Source: a virus. From it: a DNA stretch of 64,000 bases. Positions 13,704 to 51,209 of this stretch are shown in pieces (position 1 is the stretch's first letter; every line of letters begins with the position of its first letter). Location: the IMG/VR virus record IMGVR_UViG_3300009553_000022, positions 2,630 through 66,629 of that record; one strand, given 5' to 3'. The notes under the pieces are model-generated. The model did not search any database. It saw nothing but the letters and a program-made list of their open reading frames with translations, and had not been told where the DNA came from. The translations under genes were made by a program, and so were the position numbers.

Positions 13704-13735
13704 TACAGTGTCAGACATCAGCACAAGCTGTACCT
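13704..13735 (-). promoter_or_regulatory. sigma-54-type promoter P1 (degenerate)
   Basis: AGGTACAGCTTGTGCT (GG-N10-GC) followed by GATGTCTGACACTGTA; intergenic. Confidence 0.55.
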
Positions 13736-15558
13736 CATTTCATGTACCGATCGGCGAGTTTTCCTTCGACTCCGAGAGGAAGATCCGGAGCCCACTCCGG
13801 CGGGATCGACATGAGCCGCTCCGCCTCCTTCATTGCCTCGCGTGCGCCCTGGATCGGGACCGCACAAATAAGTTCGTCGTGGCTGTGGAAAATCACCGGG
13901 ATGCCCGCCCGCTCCACGCGGAGGATACCCTCAGCAGCGACGTCTCGGGCCATGCGCTGCGTCACGTTCTCCGTCAGCAGGCCGTGCCACAGTGACGGGA
14001 TCCGCGAGTTGTGGCTCGTGTCTCCCCTGATCTTGAAAGAGCAGTAATTCCCGTCGGCGCATGAGCGCACATGAAAATGTTTCAGCGGGATCCCGTTCGG
14101 CATCATCATGCACAACTCGCGATCCTTGTCGCGGGCAGCCGCGCGGATGTACTCCTTCATCCGGCCCCAGAACGAGGTGATCTTTGGGTTGGCCGCGCGG
14201 AACTGATCCACTTGGGCCTGGAGCTGCGCCTCTGTGTAGTTCAACCCCTCCTTCAGCGCGCCGCGGCCGAACGCCCCGGTGCCGCCGGCATATCCACCTG
14301 ACAAAACGTGAACTTTACACACTTTGCGAAGCCCGTTGTTCTCTTCCTTCAGGACACCGCCGCCCCAGGCCAGCGCGTAGCGCGCATAAGCCTCGTAAAT
14401 TTCCATCCCTTGCCGCATCGCCTGGAGCATGGCCTCATTGCCGGCGAGCCAGTGCAGGCACCGCGGCTCAATCTGCGAGTAGTCGATCAGAGCGAACAGG
14501 CAGCCAGGCGGCGGAATCAAGTACCTCCGCATGTCGATCCCCGCGTCACCCTCGAAATCACCCCACTCCGCCATTTCCTCGGCGAATGCGACTGAGCTGT
14601 CGAGGTTCTGGACGTTGACGCCTGTGCTGCTCCACCGCTTCGTATGGGGCGCCCCGCAATAGCGGAACTCCAGGGGGAAAATGCCGTTGTGGACGCACCT
14701 TTGCAGGGTCTTGAGTTTCTTCTGCTTTGTGTTCGCCCCGCGGAGCGTCCGCATGTTCTTCACGAGCTTCGCCAGCTCCGGGTTGGCCGCCATCCAGCGC
14801 GCACATGCCTCGTCCCGCTTGTCCAGGGACGCAGGAGCCGCGACGCCGTGCCGCGAGCAGTAGTCCCCGAACGCGTCCATACTCAGCGGCTTCCTGTCTT
14901 CGTGAACCCACGGCAGGCAGTTAATCGCCTCAAATCGCAGCCGCTCCAGGTGGGTTAAATCCTCTTCGACCGCGTCTGTGTCAATGTGGACGCCGCGCCG
15001 GTTGATCATCCGTGTGTGCGCTGCAACAGCGGCCTCAATCTCCGGCAGTGGCGGCATCTTCTCCAACATCTGCTTTTCCGTAAGCGAGTCGTTGAGGCAG
15101 TAGTCAACGACTCTCTGCTGCTCGCTGTCGGGTAACGAATTGAAGTCGACCCCCTTCATGCGATCCCGGATCGTTTTATCGACAGAGGTGCCCAGCAGGG
15201 TCTTCGACAGACCGGCAACATTGCTAGGTAACTGCTGGCCGGCCGCCTGATCGAGAAGGCAGTGCCACTCATGAACCGTCTTGCCGTAATGCTTCTCGAA
15301 AAACGCTTGGTCAAAGTTCGAGTGCGCGGCGACAAACTGGAGGTTGGGATCCTTATACCAGGAGTCGCCCAACATCTGCCCCGCTTGTGCCGGTGTGCCG
15401 CAGAATTCCAGATCGTCGGAGACGACCGAGACGAGATACGCGTCGACCGCGGCGACGTAGTTCTTCAGTCCCATTGTGTCGACTGAAATCTCCTTGTCGT
15501 ACGGCGTCTCGAAATCGACGACCACGCACTTGCGGCCAGCAAATTGGATCGGCTTCAT
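13735..15558 (-). CDS. DNA polymerase family A with 3'-5' exonuclease
   Basis: Exo motifs DFET, HSNFD, YCLND; motif A DYSQIEPR, motif B RKVCKVHVLSGGY, motif C HDE. Confidence 0.95.
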   Translation of the reverse strand: MKPIQFAGRKCVVVDFETPYDKEISVDTMGLKNYVAAVDAYLVSVVSDDLEFCGTPAQAGQMLGDSWYKDPNLQFVAAHSNFDQAFFEKHYGKTVHEWHCLLDQAAGQQLPSNVAGLSKTLLGTSVDKTIRDRMKGVDFNSLPDSEQQRVVDYCLNDSLTEKQMLEKMPPLPEIEAAVAAHTRMINRRGVHIDTDAVEEDLTHLERLRFEAINCLPWVHEDRKPLSMDAFGDYCSRHGVAAPASLDKRDEACARWMAANPELAKLVKNMRTLRGANTKQKKLKTLQRCVHNGIFPLEFRYCGAPHTKRWSSTGVNVQNLDSSVAFAEEMAEWGDFEGDAGIDMRRYLIPPPGCLFALIDYSQIEPRCLHWLAGNEAMLQAMRQGMEIYEAYARYALAWGGGVLKEENNGLRKVCKVHVLSGGYAGGTGAFGRGALKEGLNYTEAQLQAQVDQFRAANPKITSFWGRMKEYIRAAARDKDRELCMMMPNGIPLKHFHVRSCADGNYCSFKIRGDTSHNSRIPSLWHGLLTENVTQRMARDVAAEGILRVERAGIPVIFHSHDELICAVPIQGAREAMKEAERLMSIPPEWAPDLPLGVEGKLADRYMK

Positions 15559-15932
15559 TCGCGGGGTACGAGAAGTCCTGCATTCCAGTCACGGCACAGC
15601 GTTGCGAGGGTGCCGTATACCGGTACTCCCAAGCTGTCCGCAAAGTTCACTTCTGCGCGTGCGCCAGAAGACCGAGCCCAGTCATTCGTCAGAAGCACCG
15701 CGTCGCATCGGCGGAGTAACTCAAGATCACCATCAAGCCAAACATCGTCGGGGGCTGCGCCTTGAAAGAAACGTGTATTTGTGTGCGGACAAAGGACTGC
15801 AAACCCGGCATGCCAGGCTTGAAGGGCCAGCTCCTCAGCGCGGCGTATGTTCTGCTCAATCTCCCAGGCGTTTGCTCCCCGGAAGGGGCCTGCGACGTAG
15901 ACAACGAGTTTTCTAACGACGATGTGCGCCAT
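15555..15932 (-). CDS. DUF4406-like / nucleoside 2-deoxyribosyltransferase-fold protein
   Basis: VYVAGPF, CPH, RRCDAV, W..S.GA..E. Confidence 0.75.
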   Translation of the reverse strand: MAHIVVRKLVVYVAGPFRGANAWEIEQNIRRAEELALQAWHAGFAVLCPHTNTRFFQGAAPDDVWLDGDLELLRRCDAVLLTNDWARSSGARAEVNFADSLGVPVYGTLATLCRDWNAGLLVPRE

Positions 15933-15934
15933 AA

Positions 15935-16594: not shown

Positions 16595-16608
16595 GGGTTA
16601 GCGTGTTT

Positions 16609-16640
16609 CACAGTGTCAGACAAGAGCAAACGATGTGCCA
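16609..16640 (-). promoter_or_regulatory. sigma-54 promoter P2
   Basis: TGGCACATCGTTTGCT, near-perfect -24/-12, followed by CTTGTCTGACACTGTG. Confidence 0.8.
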
Positions 16641-16643
16641 CGT

Positions 16644-18774
16644 TTATCGCTTCAGCAGAATCGACTTGGTGATCTTGAAATCCCGCTCCGCGGTGCCCTC
16701 GACGTGCTCGATCCCCGAGTTTTCCATGCGGGCCAGGGTCCGGAGCTGGGTCGAGAAGCGACGCATCTGCCACTGCTGCACGAGGGGCCGCACCGGCTCA
16801 CAGCCAATCATCGCGCTGTATAGTGCTGTGGGGGTGCCGGTCCAGACGTCGGTGTTGTCAAAAACTACCGACTGGCTGGCGAACAACGCGATCAGCTCGT
16901 ACAGGTCGCGCGCTCCGCTCTGTTGCTTGCTGAGTTCGAGCAGTGACGGGTCAAAATAGCTTTCAACACCCGTTCGGCCCCCGATCCAGATCTCCGCGGG
17001 CGGGTTGTATTGCAGCAGCCAGCGGGCGAACATCGCCAGCTCCCGCGCGATCGCCGCCTCGGGGTTCTCCGGCCACTTGCCAGGGAACGCCTGGGCGAGG
17101 AAGAACATGAACTTGTCGCGAGTGTTCTCGTTCACTTCCGGCAACACTGCCGCAGAAGCCGCGTCGCAGTTGAGGGTGCCGAAAACACGGCCGCACCACA
17201 CGAGCGACGCCTTCTTCGGAACTTCGGATGCCGGCTCTGCTCCGGGTTGACGACAAGCCCCTTCAACCGCTGGGCTGCAGACGACGCCTCGCGGTCGTTG
17301 GACGGAGCGTCCTCGTCGTTCATTGCCAGCAGGGCGCACTCGAAAAGCTCGTCATTGAATGCATCCCGCGCTGTCAAATGGCCCCAAGGGTTCGCCGACC
17401 GATACCCAGCCAGGGGCTTAACGACGTGCAGGCACCACAGCGTTTTGCCGGAGTTGACGGGGCCGGCCAGAAACAGCGCCTGACCCATTGTCGGCTTGTG
17501 GTTCAAAACCGACTCGTAGAAACGCTTGTGCCAGGCCATCGCGTGATGAAACCCAGCGCCGTACAGGCTGTGGGCTAGGCTCCAGATGAAGGGAAAGTCG
17601 CGTTCCGGCACGACAAGCTCGACTTGCGCCGGTTGGACAGGGATTAGATTACAGGTGTTTAGCATCCGCCTCCCGTCGATCTCGATCATGCCTGGACGTC
17701 GACAGACGAACGGCGCGGCGTGCTCGACGCGGTTAAATGTGTTGATGTGGTGCAGGACCCGGTGAGCCTCGGAGACTGTTTGTCCTTTGACTTTCTGCGT
17801 CGACAGCCCGCCACAGGCGAGGTGCAGCAGCGTGCTCTCGCGGTCGTAGTCGCGCCAAACGCCGCCGATGTTGATGAAGTAAGTTCGCCCGTCCCAGGCG
17901 GAATCTGCCGCGAGGTTCCCGAGGCTCCTGACCCGGTTCTCGTCGCACCACTTCGCGCCGAAAAGGGCCTCCCAGGACATGAACGGGACATTGCCAGTAA
18001 AGCACAGCATGCCGTCGGGCTTAATCTGGCAGCCGTTCGGGTTGTCTGCCGTCTCGTCCCAGAAACGCGGGCCAAGGTTGTTCACCTCGAACGGACCTTG
18101 CCAGCGACCGGGCCACTTCTCCGCAACCTTCGCCGCGATGACTTCGAGGGGCAGGTTGTCCGTGCTGCCGGTGTGCTTCTTTGCGACGCTGGCCACAACG
18201 CCAAACAACGTCTTCCAGGCGATCGGGGCATTGCCCAAGGCGCGCCACTCGCCCCGTTCGTCCAGACTTGTTCCGGCTTGCACGAAGCCTCGTCAAATCC
18301 GGCAAACGCTGTCGCCAGCTTAAACTTGTCGACGAACGCTTTAATGACTGCCGCGGCGTGCGCGGAGTTCATTACCAGGATCGGGCGCTCGAACAGCCAC
18401 ACGGGCCGGAGCTTGTTGCTGAGCGTGGTTTCCAGAAATGTCGGGCGGAAATCTTCGGGGATCTGCGCGATTAACGCGTCAACGTCTGTCTGCACGACGT
18501 CGTAATCCAGGGCCAGCCCGTTCATTGAATGGGCCTCGTTGCCGCTGCCTACGCGGAGAGTCGGAATGGCCCCACGCACCGCGGAATAAATTTGCCACTG
18601 AAAATCAGGCTTCGCGGTGAGTTCGCGGCGGTCCCGTTTCGGCATCGCCTTGAGTTCGGCAAGCCGCCCCTCGCCCGGGTCATACTTCCAGGGCTCGGCG
18701 AGTTCGCCGGTCTTGGCGCGGAGGTTCGGGAAACAGACAAAAAGGGGCGGCATGTAAAAGGGGAAAGAGGGCAT
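16644..18774 (-). CDS. Primase-helicase (prim-pol N-terminus plus DUF5906/D5-like NTPase), split by two frameshifts
   Basis: LDYD primase-like motif, GPVNSGKT Walker A, MNDED Walker B. Frame changes near 18253 and 17219. Confidence 0.75.
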
Positions 18775-19743: not shown

Positions 19744-21117
19744 TTAGGATCCGGAGACTTTCTCCGAAATTGCAGGCGCCGATTTTTCCAAGCGAATCGT
19801 CGCGTACTGGATCAGGCCGTCGGCGCGTGTGAGTAAGTTTTCCGCCGAAAGGGTCATCGCCATGATCTCCTTTGCTTGCTTCTTGGTCGACTTGGCCTCG
19901 CGGGCTTGCTCCTTAGCTTCAGCCAGGATCCGCTTTTTCAGCTTCGGATCGCTAGTCTGATTTGCTTTCACGGTGCCAGACTGTAGCAGACCCTGTGCCA
20001 CGTTGTTTGACATGGCGACGTAGCTGTCCGCGAAAACTGCTTCCAACTTGGTTAGCGCGATGTCGCAGCAGCCCAAAACTTGATCGGGGGTTAAGACGTC
20101 TTTCAGCGCCTCAGCGACAAGCGCCGGCTCGTGAACTGACCGATCCCGCTTCCTGGCGCACGCCTTGATGACAACCTCCTGGCCAGGGGCGACCTCCACG
20201 CGAAGCACGCCGTTAGGTTCCGCCTGGGCTAACTCTAACGCTCTCGCCTTTATCCCACTCTTGCTCTCTTCCAGGAGAGTTTCGAGGCGGTCGAGGATGT
20301 AACACGCCTTGGCGACGTCTTCCGGCGTGTGAATTTCTATCGCGCTGAACGTCGACGGCATCGGCAGCGGCTCAGCCTTCTGAACTGCGACCGCTGCGGT
20401 CTGAACGAGTGCGGGACAACTCCCGGCCCGCGAACAAAAATCGCAATACGGATTGACGTTGAGCGTCGGGTTTGGTTGCTGCGCGCTGCGAATGACCCCT
20501 TGAACGGCTGTAAATATATCATATAACTCCTCCCGGCGAAAGCTGGCCGCGGTCGTTTTGTGCAGTTTCGGCTGCACGAACAGCACACCCAGCTTGCCGA
20601 GCTTCGGGAATTTGTGGAACGATCCGAGCGCGTACGCCTTGCCCTGGTAGTTGACTGCGGCAGGTGGTACGGGTATCCAACCGAACTTATGATCAATCAA
20701 GACGCCCGTCGTTCCATCCTTTAAAATGATCAAAACGTCGAGGTGCCCGGCTGTCAGCTCTTGTCCCGTCGGGTCCGGAACTGTCACCCTGATTTCGTTG
20801 TGGATCTCCTCCCAACCTGCCGCGATCCAACGGTCCATTTCCTTGCATGAGAATGCGAGGAGCGTGTAGTCCTCGTCACTGATCGCGAACTCCCCCGACT
20901 GACTTAATTCGTCCAACGCTGTCAGTGTACGCGTGTGCCGCCCCTCCTTCACACGATCGACCAAAACGTCGGCGAGTTCATGCAAACGGGTACCTTCTCG
21001 GGACGCCTCGGACTCGCCGTCGTTAGGCAAGTAGCCGGGACAAGCTGCATAGGCGTTGAGTTTCGACGGCCCGTAGCGGTGATGCGTTCGGGCGGCGTGG
21101 TTAGGTTGTTCGTTCAT
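19744..21117 (-). CDS. DUF2800 / Cas4-like PD-(D/E)XK exonuclease
   Basis: PSK...CPG, GTRLHE, GHLD..IDHKFG, Q..AYA, C..C...CP. Confidence 0.85.
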   Translation of the reverse strand: MNEQPNHAARTHHRYGPSKLNAYAACPGYLPNDGESEASREGTRLHELADVLVDRVKEGRHTRTLTALDELSQSGEFAISDEDYTLLAFSCKEMDRWIAAGWEEIHNEIRVTVPDPTGQELTAGHLDVLIILKDGTTGVLIDHKFGWIPVPPAAVNYQGKAYALGSFHKFPKLGKLGVLFVQPKLHKTTAASFRREELYDIFTAVQGVIRSAQQPNPTLNVNPYCDFCSRAGSCPALVQTAAVAVQKAEPLPMPSTFSAIEIHTPEDVAKACYILDRLETLLEESKSGIKARALELAQAEPNGVLRVEVAPGQEVVIKACARKRDRSVHEPALVAEALKDVLTPDQVLGCCDIALTKLEAVFADSYVAMSNNVAQGLLQSGTVKANQTSDPKLKKRILAEAKEQAREAKSTKKQAKEIMAMTLSAENLLTRADGLIQYATIRLEKSAPAISEKVSGS

Positions 21118-23325: not shown

Positions 23326-23847
23326 GCTATTTTTGGGTTTATTTTTGCGACTGCGGCGCGTGTTCTGCGCCTGCTCACAAAGTGGGATCCAGCAGCAGTT
23401 ATCTGGGCAGTAGTTTCCGTTGACCTCCCTGCGCTCTATGGTGAGGTCTTCCCGGAAACCGGACCCACGAGCCCACTGAGCGAAAGGAATGAATTCCTCC
23501 CACTCAGGGCAAATCGTGATCCCCCGGCCTCCGTAGCTGTGGAAATTAGGGTCCTTGGGGTTGCGGCAACGCTGCCGCATGTTGGTCCAAACCTTGTGCA
23601 GGGGCGTCTTTGTCTCGCCGTGAACGCGGAACCGGGTCGCGTTAAGCCGGCCTTTTTCTCGGGCGGCGCAGCCGCAAGACGTCGTATTGCCCGCGCGGAG
23701 GTTGTCGAACCTCGCCACAAATTCGGTTCCGCAGTCGCACCGCACTTGCCGGTAACGCGTGGGGAACTGCTGCCCGTGCGTGGCGCCGGGGCCTAGAATG
23801 ACAACCCGCCCGTAACGCTCGGGATCCGATGTTTGTCTAGGTCTCAC
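23107..23847 (-). CDS. HNH-like homing endonuclease, read through in frame into the histone-fold domain
   Basis: CDCG, SCGC, W..MRQRC, YGGRGITICPEW, IER..VNGNY.P.NC.W; GTG at +4 of promoter P3. Confidence 0.75.
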   Translation of the reverse strand: MRPRQTSDPERYGRVVILGPGATHGQQFPTRYRQVRCDCGTEFVARFDNLRAGNTTSCGCAAREKGRLNATRFRVHGETKTPLHKVWTNMRQRCRNPKDPNFHSYGGRGITICPEWEEFIPFAQWARGSGFREDLTIERREVNGNYCPDNCCWIPLCEQAQNTRRSRKNKPKNSMRKPQFLVVSKVKARAKARGKRVGADFLALLDRFVMERIEAATEVHNGGRKTLDASVAGFVGIKPRGSVFGE

Positions 23848-23876
23848 AGCGTCAGACATGAGCAGACGCCGTGCCA
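23845..23876 (-). promoter_or_regulatory. sigma-54 promoter P3, head of the replication operon
   Basis: TGGCACGGCGTCTGCT followed by CATGTCTGACGCTGTG. Confidence 0.8.
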
Positions 23877-23879
23877 CGT

Positions 23880-24120
23880 TTTGAGAACTTAGGGCACCCT
23901 TGAACTAGCCGGCCTGAACTTAGATCCTGGGGTTTTGCCGAAAAGAGTAGGCAAAAACAGAGAAGGGCCGCCGGGGTAAAAACCGCTTGATCTCCTTGTC
24001 AGACGTGGTTTACTACGGCCTGACAGTGTACCGAGTCACACTTTAAACATAATTCTGCGACCCGCGCAATAGCCCCGAAAACCGCTTAATTTTAACCGTA
24101 ACTTGCCGATTGAACTAGCG
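23880..24120. other. Candidate attP / regulatory intergenic region
   Basis: Non-coding, upstream of the integrase. GAACT(T)AG four times, AAAACCGCTT twice, imperfect hairpin at 23997-24025. Confidence 0.35.
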
Positions 24121-24123: not shown

Positions 24124-24372
24124 ATGAGCCACCAACATACATGGGTCCTGGCGGTCCTGGAAGAGGGCCGCGTCAGCCAACACATCGAAATCCGGTCGTT
24201 CCCGTCCCGCCGCGAGGCGCTTCTCGCCCTGGGCAGTTACGGCGAGGCCTGGCCCGGAGAGTCGCAGCAACGGTTCCTAGACGCCGTAAACGGCGATCAA
24301 CTGGACGTTGCCGAAGTCGTCGCGGGGAACAACTTCACTCTGACCTGGACAATCAAATCGACCGCCCTATGA
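24124..24372 (+). CDS. hypothetical protein
   Basis: ATGA overlap with the integrase. Confidence 0.55.
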   Translation: MSHQHTWVLAVLEEGRVSQHIEIRSFPSRREALLALGSYGEAWPGESQQRFLDAVNGDQLDVAEVVAGNNFTLTWTIKSTAL

Positions 24373-25514
24373 GCAGCCGATGGGAAACAACCAAAGTGCC
24401 GGGCATCCGCCGCGACAAAGCGACTGGGATGCTTTACCTGAACAAGAGCGTCAACGGTCGAGTCTACGGCGAGAGCCTGAAGACGACGGACCTCGCGGTC
24501 GCGAAGCAGAAGTTTTTCGCACGCCTCGCGGAGCTGGCAAGCGAGCCCCGCCCGATAGCCCCGAAGCCCGAGCGGTATTCCCTGGGTGAGATCCTCGACA
24601 CTTACGCCGCCCGGCTCGACGCGGAGCACGGCTCCCTCGACCCGAAAACCATCAAGCGGAAGAAGTGGACGCTGTCGACGATCGTCTCGACCTGGGGCGA
24701 AGTGCCGGTCCTCAAGACCCGCGGCGTCGGTAGCTTCCGCAGTCTCCCCGCGAAGCGCGTCAGCTATGACGACCTCCTGGCGTGGCGGAAGCATTTCATC
24801 GACCCGAAGGGCGGCAACTTCAAGCCGTCGTATTTCAACCTCGTCCGCGATGTCCTCGAAGAGGTGTTTGACCTGGCTGTCGAGTTCGGGCAGATCCGCG
24901 AGAATCCCGTTTGTCGTCTCAGCGTCGCAGCGGTGCCCCGCGCGCATTACGTCCTGCCGACTGGTGAACAGTGGGCGGCGATGCTGGCCAAGATCGACAC
25001 GGCGACCGAGGTCGGTCAGAACTGCCGCGACTTGCTCGAAGGGCTGTCGTTGACGGGACTGCGGATCAGCGAGGCGTATGCTCTGCGCGTCGAGATGGTT
25101 GACCTGGAAGCCCGCGAGGTTCGCTTGCCGGCCGCGATTGTCAAAGGCCGTAACGGGCGAAGGAACGGACGGACGATCGATCTTATTCCCGAAGCTCACG
25201 CACTCATGACGCGGCTTGTCGCGACCGCTGGCCCGGACGGGCTGATCTTCAAAGCCGAGGGACGACGCACATTGACGCGCATCTGCAAGGAAGCTGGCTG
25301 GACAGCGAAATTTACTCTCCACTCGTGCCGACATTTCTTCGCGACGCGGATGCTTGAATCGGGCGTGCCGGTACAGACCGTTGCGGAATGGATGGGACAT
25401 CAGGACGGCGGCACGCTGCTACTGAAGACCTACACGCATCTTTGCCGGCGGCATGGGAAGGCGGCTGCGGCGAAGGTTACGATTTTCCCGGGCGAGAAGA
25501 AGGACGCAGTCTAA
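24369..25514 (+). CDS. int: Tyrosine recombinase / integrase
   Basis: TGLRISE, K, HSCRH, MGH, KTY catalytic residues. Confidence 0.92.
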   Translation: MSSRWETTKVPGIRRDKATGMLYLNKSVNGRVYGESLKTTDLAVAKQKFFARLAELASEPRPIAPKPERYSLGEILDTYAARLDAEHGSLDPKTIKRKKWTLSTIVSTWGEVPVLKTRGVGSFRSLPAKRVSYDDLLAWRKHFIDPKGGNFKPSYFNLVRDVLEEVFDLAVEFGQIRENPVCRLSVAAVPRAHYVLPTGEQWAAMLAKIDTATEVGQNCRDLLEGLSLTGLRISEAYALRVEMVDLEAREVRLPAAIVKGRNGRRNGRTIDLIPEAHALMTRLVATAGPDGLIFKAEGRRTLTRICKEAGWTAKFTLHSCRHFFATRMLESGVPVQTVAEWMGHQDGGTLLLKTYTHLCRRHGKAAAAKVTIFPGEKKDAV

Positions 25515-25710
25515 ACGCAAAGGTGCAGATCGCCGAGCAGTGGTCTGTCAACACGCTTAACTGTTCGGCAACTGGAACAGATCCCGCAGCGTTTCCCGTT
25601 ACGGTCTAGCAGCGCGCCTGCCGCCATACGTTCAAGCTCTTCAGGGTTTCAAGTTCCGTCGTGGTAAAACCCGCCCGCGTCGTTTAGTGTGGTAGACGGT
25701 CATTTCGCTT

Positions 25711-25932
25711 TTACGCGGGGTTCGAGTATCGGCCCAGGTCAATCTCCACGCGTTCGCGGACAGTGTCGCAATCCTTGTAAATTGCGGGGATCGACACGGT
25801 CATGCGAACATCCTCGCCGCACTCTGGCCAACCAGGGTAGTGGTCCTCGGCCGAAAGCGTCGCGTCCCACTTCTTTAGCAGTGCGGCCAGTTCGGCCCGG
25901 AATTCGATTTCAACTTGCTGTGATGTCTGCAT
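25711..25932 (-). CDS. hypothetical protein
   Basis: Downstream in the activator operon. Confidence 0.55.
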   Translation of the reverse strand: MQTSQQVEIEFRAELAALLKKWDATLSAEDHYPGWPECGEDVRMTVSIPAIYKDCDTVRERVEIDLGRYSNPA

Positions 25933-26269
25933 ATTTCTGAACGTCCTTCTTCCGCACTAAATACGGCCGGAATGGCTTCAACGAAGCGGTGCAGACTAGG
26001 CACTCCTCCCGTCGGCCTGTGGCTGAACCCTGTTCGTATTCTGGCGGCCCATCAAGAGAGCGGTGCTCCCGGCCCCTTCGGAATTTGTAATTGTCGACGA
26101 TCGCCATTCTCAAGCCGATCACGTACCCGGTGCCGGACTCGCACAGCGGCGTCGGCGAAGCCTGCCGGACACACCCCTGGCCGTGAACGTAGTCACTCAA
26201 AAAGCGTTCGGAGCAAGTCATGCCGTAGGCCGGCCCGTGTTCGATTTTCTGGCCAATGAAATAGTTCAA
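25910..26269 (-). CDS. hypothetical protein
   Basis: TTGA overlap with the activator stop. Confidence 0.5.
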   Translation of the reverse strand: MNYFIGQKIEHGPAYGMTCSERFLSDYVHGQGCVRQASPTPLCESGTGYVIGLRMAIVDNYKFRRGREHRSLDGPPEYEQGSATGRREECLVCTASLKPFRPYLVRKKDVQKYADITAS

Positions 26270-27153
26270 GCTACCTCCTTCAACGTAATCCCAAGAGCTG
26301 CCAGCTTCGCACGGCCCCCATCCCGGTTGACGCCCAGGGCCTCACTAAACTGCGTGACGTTCCCAGCCTCAGCCCAGACAGCCCGCAAGGCGGCCTCGTC
26401 GAGGCATGCGTCCGGTATGGTTCCCAGGAGCAGCAACCGCGACAGCCAGCCGAACAGCTCCCGACAGTTCCCTGTCCAGGGCCGCGTCTGCAGGTCGAGC
26501 AATATCTCCGGCGAGAGCACGGGAACCGGAAGCTTATGCCTCTTCGCTTCGGCTGCGAGGAACTGGGCCGCGAGGGCTCCCAGGTCTTCCGGCCGTTCCC
26601 GCAATGGTGGAATCTCCAGGGTGAAGGCGGCGAGGCGATGATAGAGGTCGGCGCGGAGCTTGCCGGACTTGATTGTGGCGGCTGGGTCGACATTCATCGC
26701 CGCGACGATCCGCACGTCGACAAATTCGTCTCGGTCGCTGCCCAGGGAGCGCACCCGACTATCCTGGAGGGTCCGCAAGAGCTTCGACTGCGCCTGAGCC
26801 GGCATCTCCGACAGCTCGTCGAGGAACAGCGTCCCGCCAGATGCCGCGCGGAACAGGCCCAGCCGCGACGTTACAGAGCCCGTATACGCGCCCCGCTGCG
26901 CGCCGAACAGCTCGCTTTCAATTAAATCGGCAGGAAGCGCCGCACAGTTCAGCGAAACCTTCGGCCCCGCGGCGCGGGGGCTATTGCCGTGGATCAGGTT
27001 CGCGAAGACCTCCTTGCCCGTCCCCGTCTCACCCAGGACGAGAACAGGGACATCAAATTTAGCGAGATGCACAGCCTTACGGGCAAGTGCCTGAATGGCC
27101 GGACTAGCAAAGATAGGGACCAAGCGAGTTTCATAAAGGTGCCGTCCTGGCAA
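26266..27153 (-). CDS. Sigma-54-dependent transcriptional activator (bEBP AAA+ plus Fis-type HTH, no sensor domain)
   Basis: GETGTGKE, LNCAA, ESELFG..RGAYTGS, GGTLFLDE, QSKLLR, RADLYHRL, PPLRER, WTGNCREL; C-terminal GNVTQFSEALGV..KL. Confidence 0.95.
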   Translation of the reverse strand: MPGRHLYETRLVPIFASPAIQALARKAVHLAKFDVPVLVLGETGTGKEVFANLIHGNSPRAAGPKVSLNCAALPADLIESELFGAQRGAYTGSVTSRLGLFRAASGGTLFLDELSEMPAQAQSKLLRTLQDSRVRSLGSDRDEFVDVRIVAAMNVDPAATIKSGKLRADLYHRLAAFTLEIPPLRERPEDLGALAAQFLAAEAKRHKLPVPVLSPEILLDLQTRPWTGNCRELFGWLSRLLLLGTIPDACLDEAALRAVWAEAGNVTQFSEALGVNRDGGRAKLAALGITLKEVA

Positions 27154-27162
27154 GGTTGATGG

Positions 27163-27327
27163 TTAAAGGACGACCTGCTCGCGGACCCGAACGCCGTGGC
27201 GCCGCAGGCTCTCCGACAGTTGGCTGGCGAAGGCATCGGCGTCCTGCCGGGTGTAAAACGTGCCACACTCCCCCCAACCGTCCCACCGGCCAGGGCCTAT
27301 TTTAGTCTCAACAACGTATTGCTTCAT
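27163..27327 (-). CDS. hypothetical 54-aa protein, first gene of the activator operon
   Basis: MKQYVVETK...; ATG just after a -10 element. Confidence 0.55.
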   Translation of the reverse strand: MKQYVVETKIGPGRWDGWGECGTFYTRQDADAFASQLSESLRRHGVRVREQVVL

Positions 27328-27334: not shown

Positions 27335-27415
27335 ACGGTAGCACCATGCACTACGTTGTCAAACGCACGAACACAAAACAATACATTGACAACTCCCGTG
27401 GGCAGCCGATAAACC
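27335..27415. promoter_or_regulatory. Divergent sigma-70 promoters
   Basis: Minus: TTGACA (27362-27357)-N16-TACCGT with TGn. Plus: TTGACA (27386-27391)-N18-TAAACC (weak -10) before ATG 27422. Confidence 0.55.
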
Positions 27416-28178: not shown

Positions 28179-28220
28179 TGTCAAACACAGTTTGACAACG
28201 TCGCACGCATGAACTATTCT
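28179..28220 (+). promoter_or_regulatory. sigma-70 promoter with palindromic operator
   Basis: TGTCAAACA-C-AGTTTGACA; TTGACA-N17-TATTCT. Confidence 0.75.
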
Positions 28221-28243
28221 CCGGGCGTCAGGAAAACAAAATT

Positions 28244-29059
28244 ATGCAAACACTGAACGTCAAGAGCCGAACAATTCTCAGCAATGAAGACCTCAATCGC
28301 ATCGCTCCCAGCATCTTCGCGGAGCACGCGGCTTCCCACCTCACCGAACGTTACGCGTTCTTCCCCACGTCCCGCGTCGTCGACGCTATGCGCGGCGCAG
28401 GATGGAACCCCGTAGCCGCCCAAGAGATGCGCGCCCGTAAGGAAGAACGCCGCGGCTTCCAGACCCACGTCGTCCGCTTCCAGAAGGCCATTCACACGCT
28501 CGCGGTGGGCGACAGCGTCTTCGAGCTGATCCTGAAAAACGCGCATGATGGCGGCTGCTCCTGGCAGATGCACGCCGGTCTCTACCGCGCGACCTGTGCC
28601 AACGGCATGGTCGTCTCCGAAGGCGTCTCGCAGCAGGCCAACATCCGGCACAGCGGGCGGGAAATCGACGAGATCATCAGCAACAGCTTCAGCATCGCTG
28701 AACGCCTGCCCCTCATGGCCGAGCACGTTGGCAAATTCAGCAGCCGACTCCTCACCGACACCGAAGCTCGCACCTTCGCGGCGGGTGCCCTGGCCCTTCG
28801 CTACGAGGCCAACGAGGCGCCGATCAAGGCCGAGGCCCTCTTGACCGCCCGCCGGGCTGGCGACGTCGGAAACGACCTCTGGCGCACGTTCAACCGCGTT
28901 CAGGAAAACCTGATGCGCGGCAAGCAACGCGGGTACAAGATTACGGCCGCCAGCCGGGGCTTTCTGCGCAAGGTCAGCACCCGCCCGGTCACCGCGATCA
29001 ACGAAGATCTGCGTATCAATAAGGAACTTTGGAGCCTCGCCGAGAGCTTCTCGGCATAA
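28244..29059 (+). CDS. DUF932/DUF945 family protein
   Basis: APSIFA...RY.F.PT, H.VRF, NAHDG, GLYR..CANG, LW..FN.VQEN, N..LW.LA. Confidence 0.85.
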   Translation: MQTLNVKSRTILSNEDLNRIAPSIFAEHAASHLTERYAFFPTSRVVDAMRGAGWNPVAAQEMRARKEERRGFQTHVVRFQKAIHTLAVGDSVFELILKNAHDGGCSWQMHAGLYRATCANGMVVSEGVSQQANIRHSGREIDEIISNSFSIAERLPLMAEHVGKFSSRLLTDTEARTFAAGALALRYEANEAPIKAEALLTARRAGDVGNDLWRTFNRVQENLMRGKQRGYKITAASRGFLRKVSTRPVTAINEDLRINKELWSLAESFSA

Positions 29060-29129
29060 TTTACTCACGGGCGGCTGGCCCTGTGCAATCCTCCCAATTC
29101 AGCCCGCCCCAAATAGCCCACCTCAAAAC

Positions 29130-29161
29130 AAGGCCCTGCACCCACAGGGCCTTTTCTTTTT
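29130..29161 (+). terminator. Rho-independent terminator
   Basis: AAGGCCCTG-loop-CAGGGCCTT followed by a T tract. Confidence 0.75.
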
Positions 29162-29212
29162 GTCAAATTGTGTCTGACAGAGTTTGACAAAGTAACCTAA
29201 GCGGATTAGGAT
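29161..29212 (+). promoter_or_regulatory. sigma-70 leaderless promoter with three tandem boxes
   Basis: Boxes at 29161, 29171 and 29181; TTGACA-N17-TAGGAT-N6-ATG. Confidence 0.75.
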
Positions 29213-29218
29213 ACCGGC

Positions 29219-30019
29219 ATGGGAACGACAACCGAAAAACTCCTCCGCTGGGCCGACTACATCGTGATCAACACCTCGGCGGGCAAAGACTCGCAGGCGA
29301 TGATGGACTACGTTTGCCGCCTCGCATTTTCAGCCGGCATGCTGCACAAGGTCGTCGCCGTCCACGCCGACCTGGGCCGCGTCGAATGGAAGGGCACCCG
29401 CGAGCTGGCCGAGGAGCACGCCAAGTACTACGGCATTCCGTTCCACGTCGTCCGTCGCGAGAAGGGCGACCTCCTGGAGCAGGTCGAGGCGCGCGGCATG
29501 TGGCCGGACAGCGGCAACCGCTACTGCACCAGCGACCAGAAGCGCGACCAAGTGGCCAAGTTCCACACGCAGCTTTCCCTCAAACCGGTTGTCCCCGGGC
29601 GCCGCGTCCGCATCCTTAACTGCATGGGCTTCCGCAAAGACGAGAGCCCGGCCCGCGCGAAACGCCGCCCTGTCCAGGCGGACAGCCGCACGACAAACGG
29701 CAAGAAGGCCGTGCTGAACTGGCTCCCGATCCACACCTGGAGCGTCGATCTCGTCTGGAGCACGATCCGCGCCTCCGGCGTCCCCCATCATTACGCCTAC
29801 GACAAGGGCATGCCCAGGCTGTCCTGCTGCTTCTGCATCTTCGCCCCTAAGGACGCCTTGGTCATCGCAGGCCGGGAGAACCCGGAGCTTCTCGCGGAGT
29901 ACGTGCGGGTCGAGGCGAAGATCGGCCACAGCTTCCGAAACAAATTCAAGATCGCGGAGGTCCAGGAGGCGATCGCCGCAGGCTACCAACCCAAGAACGT
30001 TCAAAACTGGACAATGTAA
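29219..30019 (+). CDS. PAPS-reductase-family (PP-loop) protein
   Basis: SAGKDS, RYCT...K, GFR.DES..R, LPI..W, RLSCCFC. Confidence 0.85.
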   Translation: MGTTTEKLLRWADYIVINTSAGKDSQAMMDYVCRLAFSAGMLHKVVAVHADLGRVEWKGTRELAEEHAKYYGIPFHVVRREKGDLLEQVEARGMWPDSGNRYCTSDQKRDQVAKFHTQLSLKPVVPGRRVRILNCMGFRKDESPARAKRRPVQADSRTTNGKKAVLNWLPIHTWSVDLVWSTIRASGVPHHYAYDKGMPRLSCCFCIFAPKDALVIAGRENPELLAEYVRVEAKIGHSFRNKFKIAEVQEAIAAGYQPKNVQNWTM

Positions 30020-30909
30020 TGAAAGCTGTTGATTTATTCGCGGGCGCTGGCGGGTTCTCCACTGGCGCGAAGATGGCCGGCGTCGATGTCGTATGGGCGG
30101 CGAACCACTGGCGCGCAGCCGTCGACTGTCATGCGGCGAATCACCCCAGCGTCGCGCACATGTGCCAGGACCTGCATCAAGCCGACTGGAATCAGGTCCC
30201 AGCGCACGACGTCCTGCTGGCGTCTCCGTCCTGCCAGGGGCATGCCAAGGCCCGCGGGAAGGAGCGGCCCCACCACGACGCCGCGCGGTCTACCGCCTGG
30301 GCCGTCGTCTCCTGCGCCGAGGTTCACCGCCCGGAATTTGTCGTTGTCGAGAATGTCCCCGAGTTTCGGCGCTGGCTCCTTTACCCGGCGTGGACGCAGG
30401 CGATGAACGCCCTGGGCTACTCCACCGCGGAGCACGTTATCAACGCCGCCGACCACGGCGTCCCTCAATCCCGCGTGCGCCTGTTCGTCGTATGCTCGCG
30501 GAGCAAGGCGCCCCTGCAGCTGAAGTTCCAGCCGAAGGCCCACGTCCCGGCTAGCTCGTTCATCACAGCCCCAGGGACGACTCCCGTCAGCTCGCTGTGC
30601 GCCCGTTCCCAGGCCCGCATAGCAAACGGCCGCGCGGAGCACGGCAGCCGGTTTCTCATGGCTTATTTTGGCACGGAGAAGGGCGGGCGGAGCCTTAACG
30701 CACCCCTCGGCACCGTCACCACGCGCGACCGGTACGCCCTGGTCGACGGCGACAACTGCCGGATCCTGACCGTTGACGAGTACCGGCAGGCAATGGGGTT
30801 CCCCGACTACCAGCTGCCGGCCAACAAGAAGCTCGCGAAGCACCTGCTCGGCAACGCGGTTTGTCCGCCTGTGGCCCGCGATATCCTCCTGCAACTGGCT
30901 AAGAACTAG
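30019..30909 (+). CDS. DNA cytosine-C5 methyltransferase
   Basis: DLFAGAGG, SPSCQG, VENV, PQSR.R, GNAV. Confidence 0.92.
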   Translation: MKAVDLFAGAGGFSTGAKMAGVDVVWAANHWRAAVDCHAANHPSVAHMCQDLHQADWNQVPAHDVLLASPSCQGHAKARGKERPHHDAARSTAWAVVSCAEVHRPEFVVVENVPEFRRWLLYPAWTQAMNALGYSTAEHVINAADHGVPQSRVRLFVVCSRSKAPLQLKFQPKAHVPASSFITAPGTTPVSSLCARSQARIANGRAEHGSRFLMAYFGTEKGGRSLNAPLGTVTTRDRYALVDGDNCRILTVDEYRQAMGFPDYQLPANKKLAKHLLGNAVCPPVARDILLQLAKN

Positions 30910-30914
30910 GCCTT

Positions 30915-30976
30915 TGTGAGACACGGTAAAATAATGTCAGACAACGTTTGACAACGTAACCGAACCGGCTTAGGAT
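30915..30976 (+). promoter_or_regulatory. sigma-70 promoter with tandem boxes
   Basis: TGTCAGACA-A-CGTTTGACA; TTGACA-N17-TAGGAT. Confidence 0.75.
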
Positions 30977-38367: not shown

Positions 38368-38727
38368 TCAGGGGACGATGATGGGAGAAGACGCCTGGGC
38401 CTTCGGCGCGCGGCGGCGGCGCTGGAGAATGGCCTCGCACCACGCAGCCGCGACAGCAGCCACCTGGACGAGTTCTGTATACAGCTGGCGGTCTCGCTCC
38501 TCCTCGGTCGTCAGGACGCCGTTGCGGTAGTCACACAGCGCACGGGCGACTTCCCCGTTCTCCTCCGCGAGGACAGTGTAGCGCGCCTCGTCCAAGACGT
38601 TGGGGGCCGCACAGGTCCAGGCAAATTTGCCTGACTTGCATAGAACCTCCTGGCGCTCGCGCTCCGCGATGATGTCGTTCAGGACGGCTAGGCGAGCCGC
38701 GGCTCCGAGTTTGTCAGTGTCAGTCAC
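38368..38727 (-). CDS. MazG-like nucleotide pyrophosphohydrolase
   Basis: ER.RQ, LAEENGEVA, ELVQVAAVA..W.E; GTG at +4 of P4. Confidence 0.7.
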   Translation of the reverse strand: MTDTDKLGAAARLAVLNDIIAERERQEVLCKSGKFAWTCAAPNVLDEARYTVLAEENGEVARALCDYRNGVLTTEEERDRQLYTELVQVAAVAAAWCEAILQRRRRAPKAQASSPIIVP

Positions 38728-38777
38728 AGTCCCAGACATGAGCAGCCGGTGTGCCAACGTTTGACGCTGTCAGACAG
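38725..38777 (-). promoter_or_regulatory. sigma-54 promoter P4 with upstream boxes
   Basis: TGTCTGACAGCGTCAAACGT-TGGCACACCGGCTGCT-CATGTCTGGGACTGTG. Confidence 0.75.
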
Positions 38778-39353
38778 TGGTGTGCAGTGTCGAGGCCTGA
38801 ATGTTAGGCACGTCTAATATTGTTAGGCTGTATTATACCCGGCGCGGAGCGCGTGAAAATCACGCAGGTAAGTGTGCCATTTTGTCTCACTGCGCAGTTT
38901 TTGCACAGTGCCGGTTGTGTGTGTGCACGGACCCAGTAGCCCCGCGGGAGCACGATTCAGCCCCCACATCGCCGCCGCAGCCCGCCCGGACCCGGCGCCG
39001 ACCCTGGGCGTCAACGGGTTAGGCGCGCTCCGCGGCGAGGCCTGGGGCGCTCACACTTGTAGTAAGGGTGTGCGCGACGGCGGCTAAGACGCTGAGGCTG
39101 AGGGGCATATCCCCCGCGGAGCACGCTTGAACTAGGGAGGGGAACTAGCGCGAACGTTAACGGTAGCGCGGTCCCCAGGCGCAACCCACCGCGGAGCACG
39201 TAAGGTGTTGATAATAAACCGATTCCCCCCGAGACCCCCGGGGAAGGGAACCCCCGGCGGGGGCAGAGGGACCGAATTTTTGAATTTTGGCCGGTCAGAA
39301 AGTCCGCGGCGCGCTCCGCGAGGGGCTTGCAGGCGGAAAGCGGGTTCTCAGGC

Positions 39354-39503
39354 AAAAGGCGGAAATTTTGCCAAAAACAGGGGGGAGGTCCCTCCCATAC
39401 CATCTAGTAAGAATAATATAATAATAATAATAAAATAATATTATTACTAGTAATGGAGTAGGGAGCCACTTCCCCCCTGTTTTGGCCGAAATTCCCGCCT
39501 TTT
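39354..39503. repeat. About 65-bp imperfect inverted repeat around an (AAT)n core; candidate origin or terminus
   Basis: AAAAGGCGG..CCAAAA(A)CAGGGGG..CTAGTAA..AATAATAT mirrored on the right arm. Confidence 0.75.
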
Positions 39504-39507
39504 CGTG

Positions 39508-39544
39508 TTGCACGGTGTCAAACGGCGTGTTACAGTGTCTGAAG
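39508..39544 (+). promoter_or_regulatory. sigma-70 promoter with boxes
   Basis: TTGCAC-N17-TACAGT with TGn; boxes at 39516, 39526 and 39536. Confidence 0.5.
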
Positions 39545-39548
39545 TCTT

Positions 39549-40250
39549 ATGTGTCCTGTTAGAATCGTGTCTGTTGACGTCGAAAAGCTCGGGCGCTGGC
39601 CCGGTCTCCGGCCCGACTACGTGGAGCTTGGCCAGGAGTTTGATTCCATCGCTGCGCTTGGGCGGGCGTTCGGTTACCCGCCCAGGTCGCTTCAGCTTAG
39701 AGACAAGCCGCTGCGGCTTCACTGCGGTGTCACGATTCAGTTCACTGACGTCCCGGTACCGACGAGGCAGGAGATCCGCGACGAGTGTGTGCGCCTCCTG
39801 GAGTCTGGTGACCCTGCGACAATACAGCGGGCAGCCTTACGTGCCGCGTTTGCGGTGCGGTTCGGTCTAGTCGACGAGGGCCGGCAGAACTGCCCGGCTG
39901 ATCGGATGTATCGGACGCTGCAAGATGCCGGTGCGCTCCGCGACGTCGAGCGCCTTTTCGACCACAGGCACTACTTCCGTCGTGAGAACACGGCGGTGCT
40001 GGTGACGCAGCCGTATGGGCTCGGGCGCGCGGAGGATCCGACGTTGCACGAGTGGGCAGCCCGGTTTGGGATCGTGGTTTCAGGGGAGGACGAGTGGTCG
40101 TTTCACTATCCCGGCCAGACGTCGCTGATTATGTTCGAGCTGGACTTGCCGGCCGTCCGGCGTCTGGGTGTGACCGCCTACCGCACCCAGCGTAAAGCCC
40201 GACGCGAAGAGAACATCGCCGCATTGCGACGCCACCACAATCTCGTATGA
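39549..40250 (+). CDS. hypothetical protein
   Basis: DH...LVTQPY...SFHYPG.T. Confidence 0.6.
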   Translation: MCPVRIVSVDVEKLGRWPGLRPDYVELGQEFDSIAALGRAFGYPPRSLQLRDKPLRLHCGVTIQFTDVPVPTRQEIRDECVRLLESGDPATIQRAALRAAFAVRFGLVDEGRQNCPADRMYRTLQDAGALRDVERLFDHRHYFRRENTAVLVTQPYGLGRAEDPTLHEWAARFGIVVSGEDEWSFHYPGQTSLIMFELDLPAVRRLGVTAYRTQRKARREENIAALRRHHNLV

Positions 40251-40648: not shown

Positions 40649-40767
40649 ACAGTGCACGCCTGCCTGAACTACTCGGCCCACATGTACCGCTGCTGCTGGC
40701 TTTGCCGGAAGCGCCTCACACCGACGATCGTTTGTAACTGGTGTTGGCTAGGTACTTGGTCTGATTT

Positions 40768-40811
40768 TGTCTGACACTGTGGCACGGCGTCTGCTCATGT
40801 CTGGAGGTGTG
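40768..40811 (+). promoter_or_regulatory. sigma-54 promoter P5
   Basis: TGTCTGACACTG-TGGCACGGCGTCTGCT-CATGTCTGGAGGTGTG. Confidence 0.8.
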
Positions 40812-41015
40812 AGCAAGCAACTAACACGAAGCAGCGTCAAAGCAATGAAGCCGGCCGAGCAGGCCGCGGCGTACTTCGCTGACAACACGGCGATGTATGT
40901 AACCAACGATCGGCCCGGCCCCAGCCTGCGAGCGCAAGAAGCGTTCTGGAACGACTGGCAGGAGGCCCTGGACACCTGGAAGGCGACGCTGCCTCGCGAC
41001 CGTTTCTCCGTATGA
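40809..41015 (+). CDS. hypothetical protein
   Basis: GTG at +4 of P5. Confidence 0.55.
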   Translation: MSKQLTRSSVKAMKPAEQAAAYFADNTAMYVTNDRPGPSLRAQEAFWNDWQEALDTWKATLPRDRFSV

Positions 41016-42694: not shown

Positions 42695-43101
42695 AAGAGT
42701 ACGTCGCCGGATTTTTGTTCTCCACCGACCGCAGCCGGGTCGTTCTGATCTGCAAAGAGAAACCCGCCTGGCAGGCCGGCAAGCTGAACGGAGTCGGCGG
42801 GAAGATCGAGCGCGACGAGCTGCCGCATCAGGCCATGCGCCGCGAGTTCTTCGAGGAAACCGGCGCGAAGACTTGCGTCTCGGACTGGCACCACTTCTGC
42901 AGGTACCAGGGTGAGGATTGTGTCGTGCATTTCTTCCGTGCCTTTAAAGATCTCGAAGTCGAGTCAGTGACGAGCGAGCTTGTGCGCTGGTACTACGTCC
43001 GTGAACTGAACACATACCCCACGCTGCCTAACCTCTCCTGGCTGGTGCCGTTTGCCCTCGACGAAACGCTGTCGCATTCTGAGGTCTACGAGGTGGCTTA
43101 A
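42691..43101 (+). CDS. NUDIX hydrolase
   Basis: GGKIERDE.....MRREFFEETG; Shine-Dalgarno GGAGGAG. Confidence 0.9.
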   Translation: MKEYVAGFLFSTDRSRVVLICKEKPAWQAGKLNGVGGKIERDELPHQAMRREFFEETGAKTCVSDWHHFCRYQGEDCVVHFFRAFKDLEVESVTSELVRWYYVRELNTYPTLPNLSWLVPFALDETLSHSEVYEVA

Positions 43102-44557: not shown

Positions 44558-44611
44558 TGTCTGACATTGACTGAAACCGTGGCACGGTAGCTGCTCTTGT
44601 CTGACACTGTG
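44558..44611 (+). promoter_or_regulatory. sigma-54 promoter P6
   Basis: TGGCACGGTAGCTGCT (44580-44595) followed by CTTGTCTGACACTGTG; upstream box at 44558. Confidence 0.8.
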
Positions 44612-44836
44612 AAACGTCTACTGACACAAGTTCGCATCTGGTTGATGCGGTATCACGCGGAGTTCCTCCTGCAACGCGTTCTCGCCGAAATCGATCGGAT
44701 CGATGCGATCCAATACGCGAACATTCGTCGCGATCGCGAAATCATTCGTCTTTCCCAAGAAGCCGACAAACTCGAAGCCTCCCTTGACGCGGAGAGCCGA
44801 CGCCGCAAACGCGCCTTCTTGGAACTCCCGGACTAG
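44609..44836 (+). CDS. hypothetical coiled-coil protein
   Basis: GTG at +4 of P6. Confidence 0.55.
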   Translation: MKRLLTQVRIWLMRYHAEFLLQRVLAEIDRIDAIQYANIRRDREIIRLSQEADKLEASLDAESRRRKRAFLELPD

Positions 44837-49050: not shown

Positions 49051-49066
49051 GTAACGCCTCCCACCT

Positions 49067-51163: not shown

Positions 51164-51166
51164 GGC

Positions 51167-51209
51167 GTTTGACACGTTGGCACGGAGTCTGCTCCTGTCT
51201 AACGCTGTG
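51167..51209 (+). promoter_or_regulatory. sigma-54 promoter P7, upstream of scaffold/capsid genes
   Basis: GTTTGACACGT-TGGCACGGAGTCTGCT-CCTGTCTAACGCTGTG. Confidence 0.8.

Follow-up and report, generated by a model that had tools for sequence, protein, structure and literature searches.

Promoter-like elements and an activator gene in an uncultivated phage genome

The window analysed here is a stretch of 64,000 nucleotides taken from one virus record of 66,629 bp (IMGVR_UViG_3300009553_000022, bases 2630-66629). It contains a family of eight promoter-like elements with the -24/-12 signature of sigma-54 (RpoN) and a gene for a bacterial enhancer-binding protein (bEBP). Promoters of the sigma-54 type are inactive unless an activator is present. 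The gene content includes a tyrosine integrase, DNA polymerase A, a helicase, a DUF2800 nuclease, an exonuclease, methyltransferases, a large terminase, a portal and a major capsid protein; for many other phage proteins, no family was found in Pfam and PHROG scans of the submitted proteins. The G+C content is 61%, and near-identical contigs are present in four independent soil or rhizosphere runs. Neither tRNA genes nor a terminal repeat were found on the contig. When the last and first 1,500 bases of the contig are joined, they give one collinear 2,334-bp alignment to G001, a related genome fragment, indicating that the contig ends are contiguous in this relative, so that the genome is probably circularly complete and little is likely to be missing. 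Judging from its sequence, we are probably dealing with a complete tailed phage of 66.6 kb which, given the tyrosine integrase gene, is probably temperate. A 20-kb megablast query matched no cultured relative. The capsid protein matches seven phage records, all below 30% identity, and none of them belongs to a Pseudomonas phage.

The pattern TGGCAC-N6-TGCT occurs seven times in the window in its exact form, versus 0.12 expected, and none of 100 shuffled sequences reached seven. The whole contig has 33 TGGCAC hexamers, seven of which are followed by N6-TGCT. Alignment of the sites reveals a longer conserved element of about 40 nt, (a)aacg-TGGCAC-N6-TGCT-c-N-tGTCTGAC-N-CTGTGaaa. A position weight matrix of this extended element, trained on 13 sites (eight from the phage and five from G001), isolates exactly eight sites on the contig, with scores of 43.8-59.2 bits (28.7-55.2 bits in leave-one-out scoring), versus 20.9 bits for the next-best position and a maximum of 10.1 bits over ten random genomes. 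Across the 13 sites the GG and the A of TGGCAC as well as the TGCT are invariant, and the spacers vary. All eight window sites have GG-N10-GC and TGCT, seven have the complete TGGCAC, and one has the full TTGC.

The original prediction, made from the letters and open reading frames (ORFs) of this DNA, had listed seven such 16-mers as promoters. All seven are confirmed in position and strand and belong to the family, but the count was one short, since an eighth site, TGGCACAGGGTCTGCT at 19985-20000(-), had been missed. It is located inside the DUF2800/PD-(D/E)XK ORF (19744-21117). The 16-mers at 23876(-) and 40780(+) are identical (TGGCACGGCGTCTGCT). The most divergent site, AGGTAC..GTGCT at 13735(-), has a degenerate -24 element and retains the GG, the TGCT and the whole downstream block; it is assigned to the family because of its matrix score (Table 1).

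All eight sites point in the same direction as the genes that follow, and seven are found at gene boundaries, in line with the predicted orientation and placement; the functions originally assigned to the headed blocks are broadly right. One boundary site overlaps the polymerase stop codon, one is positioned 4 nt past a stop codon and one 15 nt past that of the portal gene, and the remaining four have non-coding DNA upstream. The eighth site is in the 3' part of the DUF2800 ORF, which is conserved at full length in G006, a more distant relative. There, a GTG at +4 is in frame with the last 75 codons of the ORF, and a separate C-terminal product could be made from this promoter.

Two further sequences resemble the family. 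TGGCACCACTTCTGCA at 42886-42901(+), within the NUDIX hydrolase ORF, is devoid of the downstream block and probably represents a chance match or a cryptic sigma-54 site. A degenerate copy of the promoter (40750-40789(+), 20.9 bits) precedes the 40780 promoter by 30 nt; the overlap of the CTGTG of this copy with the TGGCAC of that promoter suggests a tandem duplication.

Table 1. Positions, sequences and surroundings of the promoter-like elements and of the genes discussed in the text (window coordinates).
Feature	Position	Strand	Sequence and score	Context
Promoter 1	13701..13740	-	AGGTAC -24, TGCT -12, downstream block GTCTGACACTGTA; 43.8 bits, 28.7 leave-one-out	Overlaps DNA polymerase A stop codon; heads exonuclease / dNMP kinase / resolvase block
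Promoter 2	16606..16645	-	TGGCACATCGTTTGCT; sole site with full TTGC; 59.2 bits	4 nt past upstream stop; heads methyltransferase / deoxyribosyltransferase / DNA polymerase A block
Promoter 3	19966..20005	-	50.0 bits	Inside 3' part of DUF2800/PD-(D/E)XK ORF; heads conserved 270-aa gene and primase-like genes
Promoter 4	23842..23881	-	58.0 bits	Non-coding upstream; heads HNH endonuclease / helicase / DUF2800 replication block
Promoter 5	38722..38761	-	TGTCTGACA box just upstream of -24; 45.5 bits	Heads gene of no known function and DNA methyltransferase-like gene; syntenic G001 site 2009(-)
Promoter 6	40775..40814	+	46.3 bits	Heads small-gene block with NUDIX hydrolase; syntenic G001 site 4188(+)
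Promoter 7	44575..44614	+	56.3 bits	Heads 75-aa ORF, peptidase, FkbM methyltransferase, large terminase, portal; syntenic G001 site 6761(+)
Promoter 8	51173..51212	+	53.2 bits	15 nt past portal stop; heads 73-aa ORF and head / major capsid / tail genes; syntenic G001 site 14394(+)
bEBP gene, 285 aa	26266..27123 (ORF open to 27153)	-	PF00158	Activator operon
Activator operon	25711..27327	-		54-aa ORF 27163-27327, bEBP, 119-aa ORF 25910-26269, 73-aa ORF 25711-25932
Candidate sigma-70-type early promoter	27335..27364	-	GTTTGACAACGT box, 16-nt spacer, TGcTACCGT extended -10	Activator operon
Early sigma-70-type promoter	28192-28220	+	TTGACA-17-TATTCT	
Early sigma-70-type promoter	29184-29212	+	TTGACA-17-TAGGAT	
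Early sigma-70-type promoter	30948-30976	+	TTGACA-17-TAGGAT	
GTTTGACAAMGT box, exact copies	8702-8713(-), 27353-27364(-), 28190-28201(+), 29182-29193(+), 30946-30957(+)			
GTTTGACAAMGT box, one-mismatch copies	19181(+), 39512(-)			
TGTCWGACA copies	13709-13717, 16614-16622, 29171-29179, 30935-30943, 38768-38776, 40768-40776, 44558-44566, 44598-44606			
Tyrosine integrase	24141..25514	+	PF00589, E=5.1e-19	Context only

The phage bEBP

The gene for the activator is real, as the original prediction had claimed, but the TTG at 27123 is the more probable start, rather than the position 27153 given there, because its only orthologue, P0002, starts at the corresponding codon. The product matches the PF00158 sigma-54 interaction domain over residues 16-179 (E=4.7e-59; 199 bits versus a cut-off of 20.2; profile of 168 positions) and also the AAA lid. 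Only a few residues precede the AAA+ core, indicating that this bEBP has no N-terminal sensor domain. In an alignment of 36 sequences, the columns of Walker A (GETGTGKE) and of the Walker B residues DE (D102/E103) are invariant. In the sigma-54 contact loop L1, which reads GAYTGS, the threonine is kept and the phenylalanine is replaced by tyrosine. The loop of HrpS is described as always GAYTGA (PMC3105312), and GAYTGA and GAFSGA variants are reported to be functional (PMC6615313).

An AlphaFold model built with the 36 sequences has a mean predicted local distance difference test score (pLDDT) of 91.8, and its best Foldseek matches are FlrC, NtrC1, FleQ, ZraR and PspF (E about 1e-27, TM 0.78-0.9). 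The C-terminus is modelled as three helices (238-253, 256-263 and 267-276; pLDDT about 77-88) and aligns with the Fis-type helix-turn-helix (HTH) region of bacterial relatives; the alignment of the ZraR chain comprising the central and DNA-binding domains to the model spans 294 columns. Both the sequence and the predicted fold indicate that the gene product is a true member of the sigma-54 activator family.

Among 8,000 sequences scored, at least 7,835 are homologues at E<=1e-10. P0002, a sensor-less protein of 301 aa encoded on a 48.7-kb contig, is the only close one among the matches listed (69-73% identity); the other homologues among the 120 listed are bacterial, with at most 55% identity. 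A metagenome scan with a two-sequence alignment yielded no clade-mates among the matches listed, which were mostly generic bacterial bEBPs with a best identity of 51%. The same alignment yielded none on viral contigs either, where it matched 80 loci at 33-52% identity. In the phage database, 66 records match the bEBP, all below 60% identity, and many of those listed are bacterial contigs filed as phage; MT121960.1, a record nearly without annotation, is also among them. Near-identical contigs from two independent runs cover the bEBP gene (X2, 25454-26821; X3, 25980-27144), showing that it is part of the phage rather than of an assembly chimera. No family was found for the small ORFs of the activator operon.

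Candidate early promoters of the sigma-70 type

The 12-mer GTTTGACAAMGT is present in five exact copies in the window and in seven within one mismatch, versus 0.31 expected. At 27353-27364(-) the box, in its exact form GTTTGACAACGT, is directed towards the activator operon; it also stands at the head of the early promoters at 28190 and 30946, and GTTTGACAAAGT is found at 29182. This box supports the original prediction of an activator made from sigma-70 early promoters and is consistent with early synthesis of the protein by sigma-70 RNA polymerase. The ATG of the first ORF of the operon is about 7 nt past the candidate -10 element; this -10 and its spacing were read by eye, and the consensus scan did not list this promoter. 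The three early promoters within 28190..30976(+), in which GTTTGACAAMGT supplies the TTGACA, head small early genes and genes for DUF932, phosphoadenosine phosphosulfate (PAPS)-reductase-like and C5-methylase proteins. The ATG is only 6-9 nt past the -10 at 29184 and 30948, so that early transcripts also look leaderless. The sigma-70 consensus scan gave no overall enrichment (6 versus 4.1 +/- 1.7 in shuffles), and the assignment of early promoters is therefore based on the common 12-mer box.

In the early operon divergent from the activator operon, a stand-alone protein of 121 aa (27781-28146, +) has a weak match to PAS_3 (E=0.0059, below the cut-off) and is a possible trans-acting sensor.

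As had been stated originally, the phage appears to have no RNA polymerase or sigma factor of its own. Six-frame searches of the contig detected neither Sigma70_r2 nor Sigma54_DBD. A T7-type RNA polymerase was not detected in the six-frame search either, a weak search that had no match in control genomes as well. Pfam and PHROG scans of the submitted proteins found no polymerase or sigma domains.

Block at the predicted start, palindrome and upstream regions

With -12 set at the C of TGC, the variable base of GAC-N-CTGTG becomes the predicted start and the GTG is at +4. The starts predicted for the eight promoters are at about 13709, 16614, 19974, 23850, 38730, 40806, 44606 and 51204, or up to 3 nt downstream. 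This GTG opens an ORF of at least 68 codons at six of the eight window sites and at four of the five G001 sites. The ORF opened at the 16640 site has 6 codons, and its stop overlaps the methyltransferase ATG; the 13735 site has GTA instead of the GTG, with an in-frame ATG at +16. The N-termini read from the +4 GTG are conserved between syntenic sites of the phage and G001. Collectively, these ORFs and N-termini argue that translation starts at the GTG, in which case the predicted transcripts would be nearly leaderless. Of 92 called genes, only 25 are preceded by a four-base Shine-Dalgarno core, versus 17.6% of random positions. Taken with the leaderless starts, such weak use of Shine-Dalgarno sequences may point to a host that depends only weakly on them.

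At the core of the block is TGTCWGACA, a perfect palindrome of 9 bp. The window has ten TGTCNGACA sites, eight of them with W at the centre, versus about one expected. The palindrome is found at about -8 to +1 in three of the sigma-54-type promoters, with near-matches in the rest, just upstream of the -24 element in three promoters, and just upstream of the -35 box in two sigma-70-type early promoters. Its placement at both promoter types suggests that its reader is probably either the tail of the activator itself or a separate regulator of the phage, and TGTCWGACA is likely an operator for a phage regulator. Upstream of the promoters, this box is the only element that they share, and it directly adjoins the core promoter. 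The activator could act from solution or from proximal sites instead of a distal enhancer. CCGCGGAGCRC was considered as a general enhancer and rejected, being present upstream of only a few promoters. Promoter variants among near-identical DNA contigs are too few to judge constraint.

Distribution of the activator and the motif

One relative, G001, is a 35-kb fragment (rated 56% complete) with proteins 35-96% identical to those of the phage, and it is syntenic with window 40.4-64 kb plus the contig start. It has five sites, four of which are at the junctions matching 38756(-), 40780(+), 44580(+) and 51178(+), and the fifth is in an inserted segment. Five more distant relatives have capsid proteins 46-56% identical to that of the phage. 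Two of them, G006 (a 69.6-kb record rated 100% complete) and G004 (rated 77% complete), share the helicase/DUF2800/primase-like/polymerase and terminase/portal/capsid modules according to tblastn. PF00158 was found in none of the five, and neither was TGGCAY-N6-TGCW. Thus, the activator and the motif are present together in the phage and absent together from its distant relatives, which bears out the proposed co-occurrence of bEBP and promoters. Among repeated 10-mers of G006 and G004, no promoter motif stands out as a replacement.

Other searches for relatives added little. None were detected when the DNA polymerase and the helicase were used as single-protein queries. A second extended DNA pattern recovered, beyond G001, only two small unrelated fragments with one identical site each and no PF00158, and was uninformative. 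G002, with one site at the contig end and no shared proteins, was set aside.

A wider survey covered 79 of the 80 loci with viral bEBP homologues (1.26 Mb), with L004, at a provirus edge, left out. The -24/-12 pattern occurs 94 times near these genes, versus 13 times for a reversed-pattern control. At least one motif is present at 42 of the 79 loci and at least three at 15; the 37 loci with none may in part be host flanks. Among the IMG/VR loci L114-L192, many contigs of about 50 kb and 28-50% G+C combine a short bEBP gene with 3-9 motifs of the -24/-12 type within 10 kb, one of them often directly after the bEBP gene.

Proposed cascade and alternative explanations

We consider it probable (about 0.78) that host sigma-70 expresses the early region and the activator, and that the sensor-less activator then opens sigma-54 closed complexes at eight promoters, switching on replication, modification, packaging and virion genes. 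Host sigma-70 RNA polymerase would transcribe the early region (about 27.3-36 kb) from promoters with the GTTTGACAAMGT -35 box, one of which would drive the leftward small operon with the sensor-less enhancer-binding ATPase of PspF/HrpS style. Meanwhile, host sigma-54 holoenzyme would wait in closed complexes on the eight near-consensus promoters, until the phage ATPase remodels them by ATP hydrolysis. Remodelling would activate eight units, four of them leftward and devoted to replication and nucleotide metabolism, and four for modification, small genes, packaging and virion proteins. The phage-specific block GTCTGAC-N-CTGTG would span the predicted start, with the GTG at about +4 usually serving as the start codon of the first gene and the transcripts being nearly leaderless.

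We also put forward, more tentatively and at somewhat less than even odds, that the need of sigma-54 for an activator serves as the master lock of a temperate phage. One early sensor-less ATPase would open eight silent promoters that drive essentially all replication and virion genes, and these promoters would be fused to a palindromic operator and to near-leaderless GTG starts. Such a switch would be self-contained, almost leak-free and independent of host sigma-70 control.

Several observations weigh against the cascade. In the promoters, the -12 element is CTGCT in six of eight sites and GTGCT at 13735, with the full TTGCT only at 16640. The block from -8 to +10 is conserved as strongly as the -24/-12 elements and has two invariant positions; since such a block is not a feature of sigma-54 promoters, another factor may be involved. 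An 8-mer survey of 300 nt upstream of the 13 sites found no common distal enhancer at 70-200 bp. In the activator, the contact loop is GAYTGS rather than GAFTGA (GAFSGA in P0002), and Pfam HTH_8 has no match to the C-terminus at E<=10, for which reason DNA binding by the bEBP is predicted as likely only. In the genomes, the part of the genome in which an activator would be expected is missing from the G001 fragment, so that within the clade the co-occurrence of activator and motif rests on one genome, and CheckV estimates the completeness of the contig at 76%. Among the runs containing DNA of the phage, none is recorded as RNA. Alignments of the capsid protein and the terminase found no prophage relatives in species-representative genomes from which a host, and its rpoN, could be assigned.

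Alternatively, the eight sites could be sigma-54 promoters fired by enhancer-binding proteins of the host, with the phage ATPase acting on other targets, e.g. host sigma-54 genes. There is a parallel for this in phage YuA, whose record (NC_010116) has three active -24/-12 promoters annotated in the structural region and no activator gene annotated; furthermore, no Pseudomonas phage record matches the activator in tblastn, and no site specific for the phage protein is apparent upstream of the promoters as an enhancer. Nevertheless, we regard this explanation as unlikely. Activator and motif occur together in the phage and both are absent from all five distant relatives, the motifs cluster near viral bEBP genes in general (94 versus 13), and activation is most simply explained by a sensor-less activator expressed from an early promoter.

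An even less probable explanation is that the 40-nt element is read by some other phage factor, such as a polymerase, a sigma-like protein or a DNA-binding regulator acting on the GTCTGAC-CTGTG block, and that its likeness to -24/-12 promoters is coincidental. The strong conservation of the block just described would fit such a factor, as would the presence of the TGTCWGACA palindrome at sigma-70-type promoters and the many phage proteins without a family. By contrast, coincidence would hardly account for TGGCAC and TGCT being invariant or nearly so at the exact sigma-54 spacing in 13 sites around a free spacer, in a genome that also encodes a bona fide sigma-54 activator and on whose contig polymerase or sigma domains were not found; relatives without the activator are also without the motif. 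We give least credence to the element being a repeated module-boundary sequence, i.e. a recombination or homing site or a structural repeat, rather than a promoter. The sites do mark module junctions, one adjoins the HNH endonuclease gene, and the extra G001 site belongs to an inserted segment. However, a copied repeat would not explain why all eight sites are strictly co-oriented with genes or why an in-frame +4 GTG opens long ORFs at most sites of both genomes, and fixed positions around a free spacer are expected of a signal read by a protein. The cascade driven by the phage's own bEBP is thus the explanation we favour.

Comparison with known systems

Phages redirect host transcription by means of their own polymerases, sigma factors, anti-sigma factors or antiterminators. 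The use of host sigma-54 by phages is described as "rare" but "not unprecedented", YuA being reported as strictly dependent on it (PMC5053324, citing Ceyssens 2008; bioRxiv 10.1101/2023.10.13.562163). The present phage is similar to YuA in being a tailed phage without an RNA polymerase of its own and with -24/-12 promoters for particle genes. Unlike in YuA, where the three promoters are limited to the structural region, the eight sites here are uniform and near-consensus and include replication genes. The YuA sites are loose GG-N10-GC matches, and TGGCAY-N6-TGCW is absent from the 50 kb examined. There is also no sequence relatedness to YuA or M6, as judged from the lack of capsid matches among Pseudomonas phages and of any match in the 20-kb megablast.

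Like PspF and HrpS, the phage bEBP has no N-terminal regulatory domain and consists of an AAA+ sigma-54 domain with a short helical tail at the C-terminus that resembles a DNA-binding domain. The structural matches include the PspF AAA domain, and the GAYTGA loop reported for HrpS (PMC3105312) resembles GAYTGS. The phage protein differs from both in being only about 40-45% identical to them in the AAA+ core and in having a recognition-helix region distinct from that of bacterial relatives; no PspA- or HrpV-like partner was identified, and the protein is phage-borne and apparently controls phage genes. The Htm protein (Gp204) of Mosigvirus AV110 is reported as a phage AAA+ protein with a bEBP-like structure, proposed to act on sigma-54 polymerase, and as lacking the GAFTGA loop and a C-terminal HTH and acting on host genes (bioRxiv 10.64898/2026.10.06.757011). 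Unlike Htm, the phage protein studied here is a full PF00158 member with an intact loop and with matching phage promoters.

The original prediction knew of no characterised phage cascade of such design. This holds only in part. Sigma-54-dependent phage transcription is already known, since YuA uses host sigma-54, but none of the papers found in our literature searches describes a phage that has both a bona fide bEBP and a promoter regulon of its own, and a phage-borne bEBP with a genome-wide regulon is, as far as these searches go, without precedent. The promoter extension block is also distinctive. Host sigma-54 use is documented for one phage group (YuA), there without a phage activator; if the cascade is real, a phage-supplied enhancer-binding ATPase with matching promoters before most genes would be a further strategy of takeover. 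Silence gated by an activator would suit a lysis-lysogeny lock and be attractive for tightly gated synthetic circuits. The recurrence of the motif near other viral bEBP genes suggests that the strategy is common in uncultured phages.

Other features of the genome

The tail genes are followed by a gene for a giant protein of 2,424 aa (contig start to window 6251, +) with a PBECR5 nuclease domain (E=1.5e-24) and 61% identity to the corresponding G001 protein; a scan of the 2,082 residues inside the window found no polymerase domain. The primase-like region consists of three overlapping ORFs (16644-17339, 17132-18283 and 18082-18774). Contigs from three other runs have an extra G behind window 17216 and 18253, suggesting that the region is probably one longer gene, split by two single-base differences or assembly errors. 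The longest non-coding stretch, window 38780-39560, contains the motif CCGCGGAGCRC at least five times (some 22 copies are present genome-wide) and an AT-rich (AAT)n core between inverted G+C-rich arms. This stretch is a candidate replication origin or packaging site.

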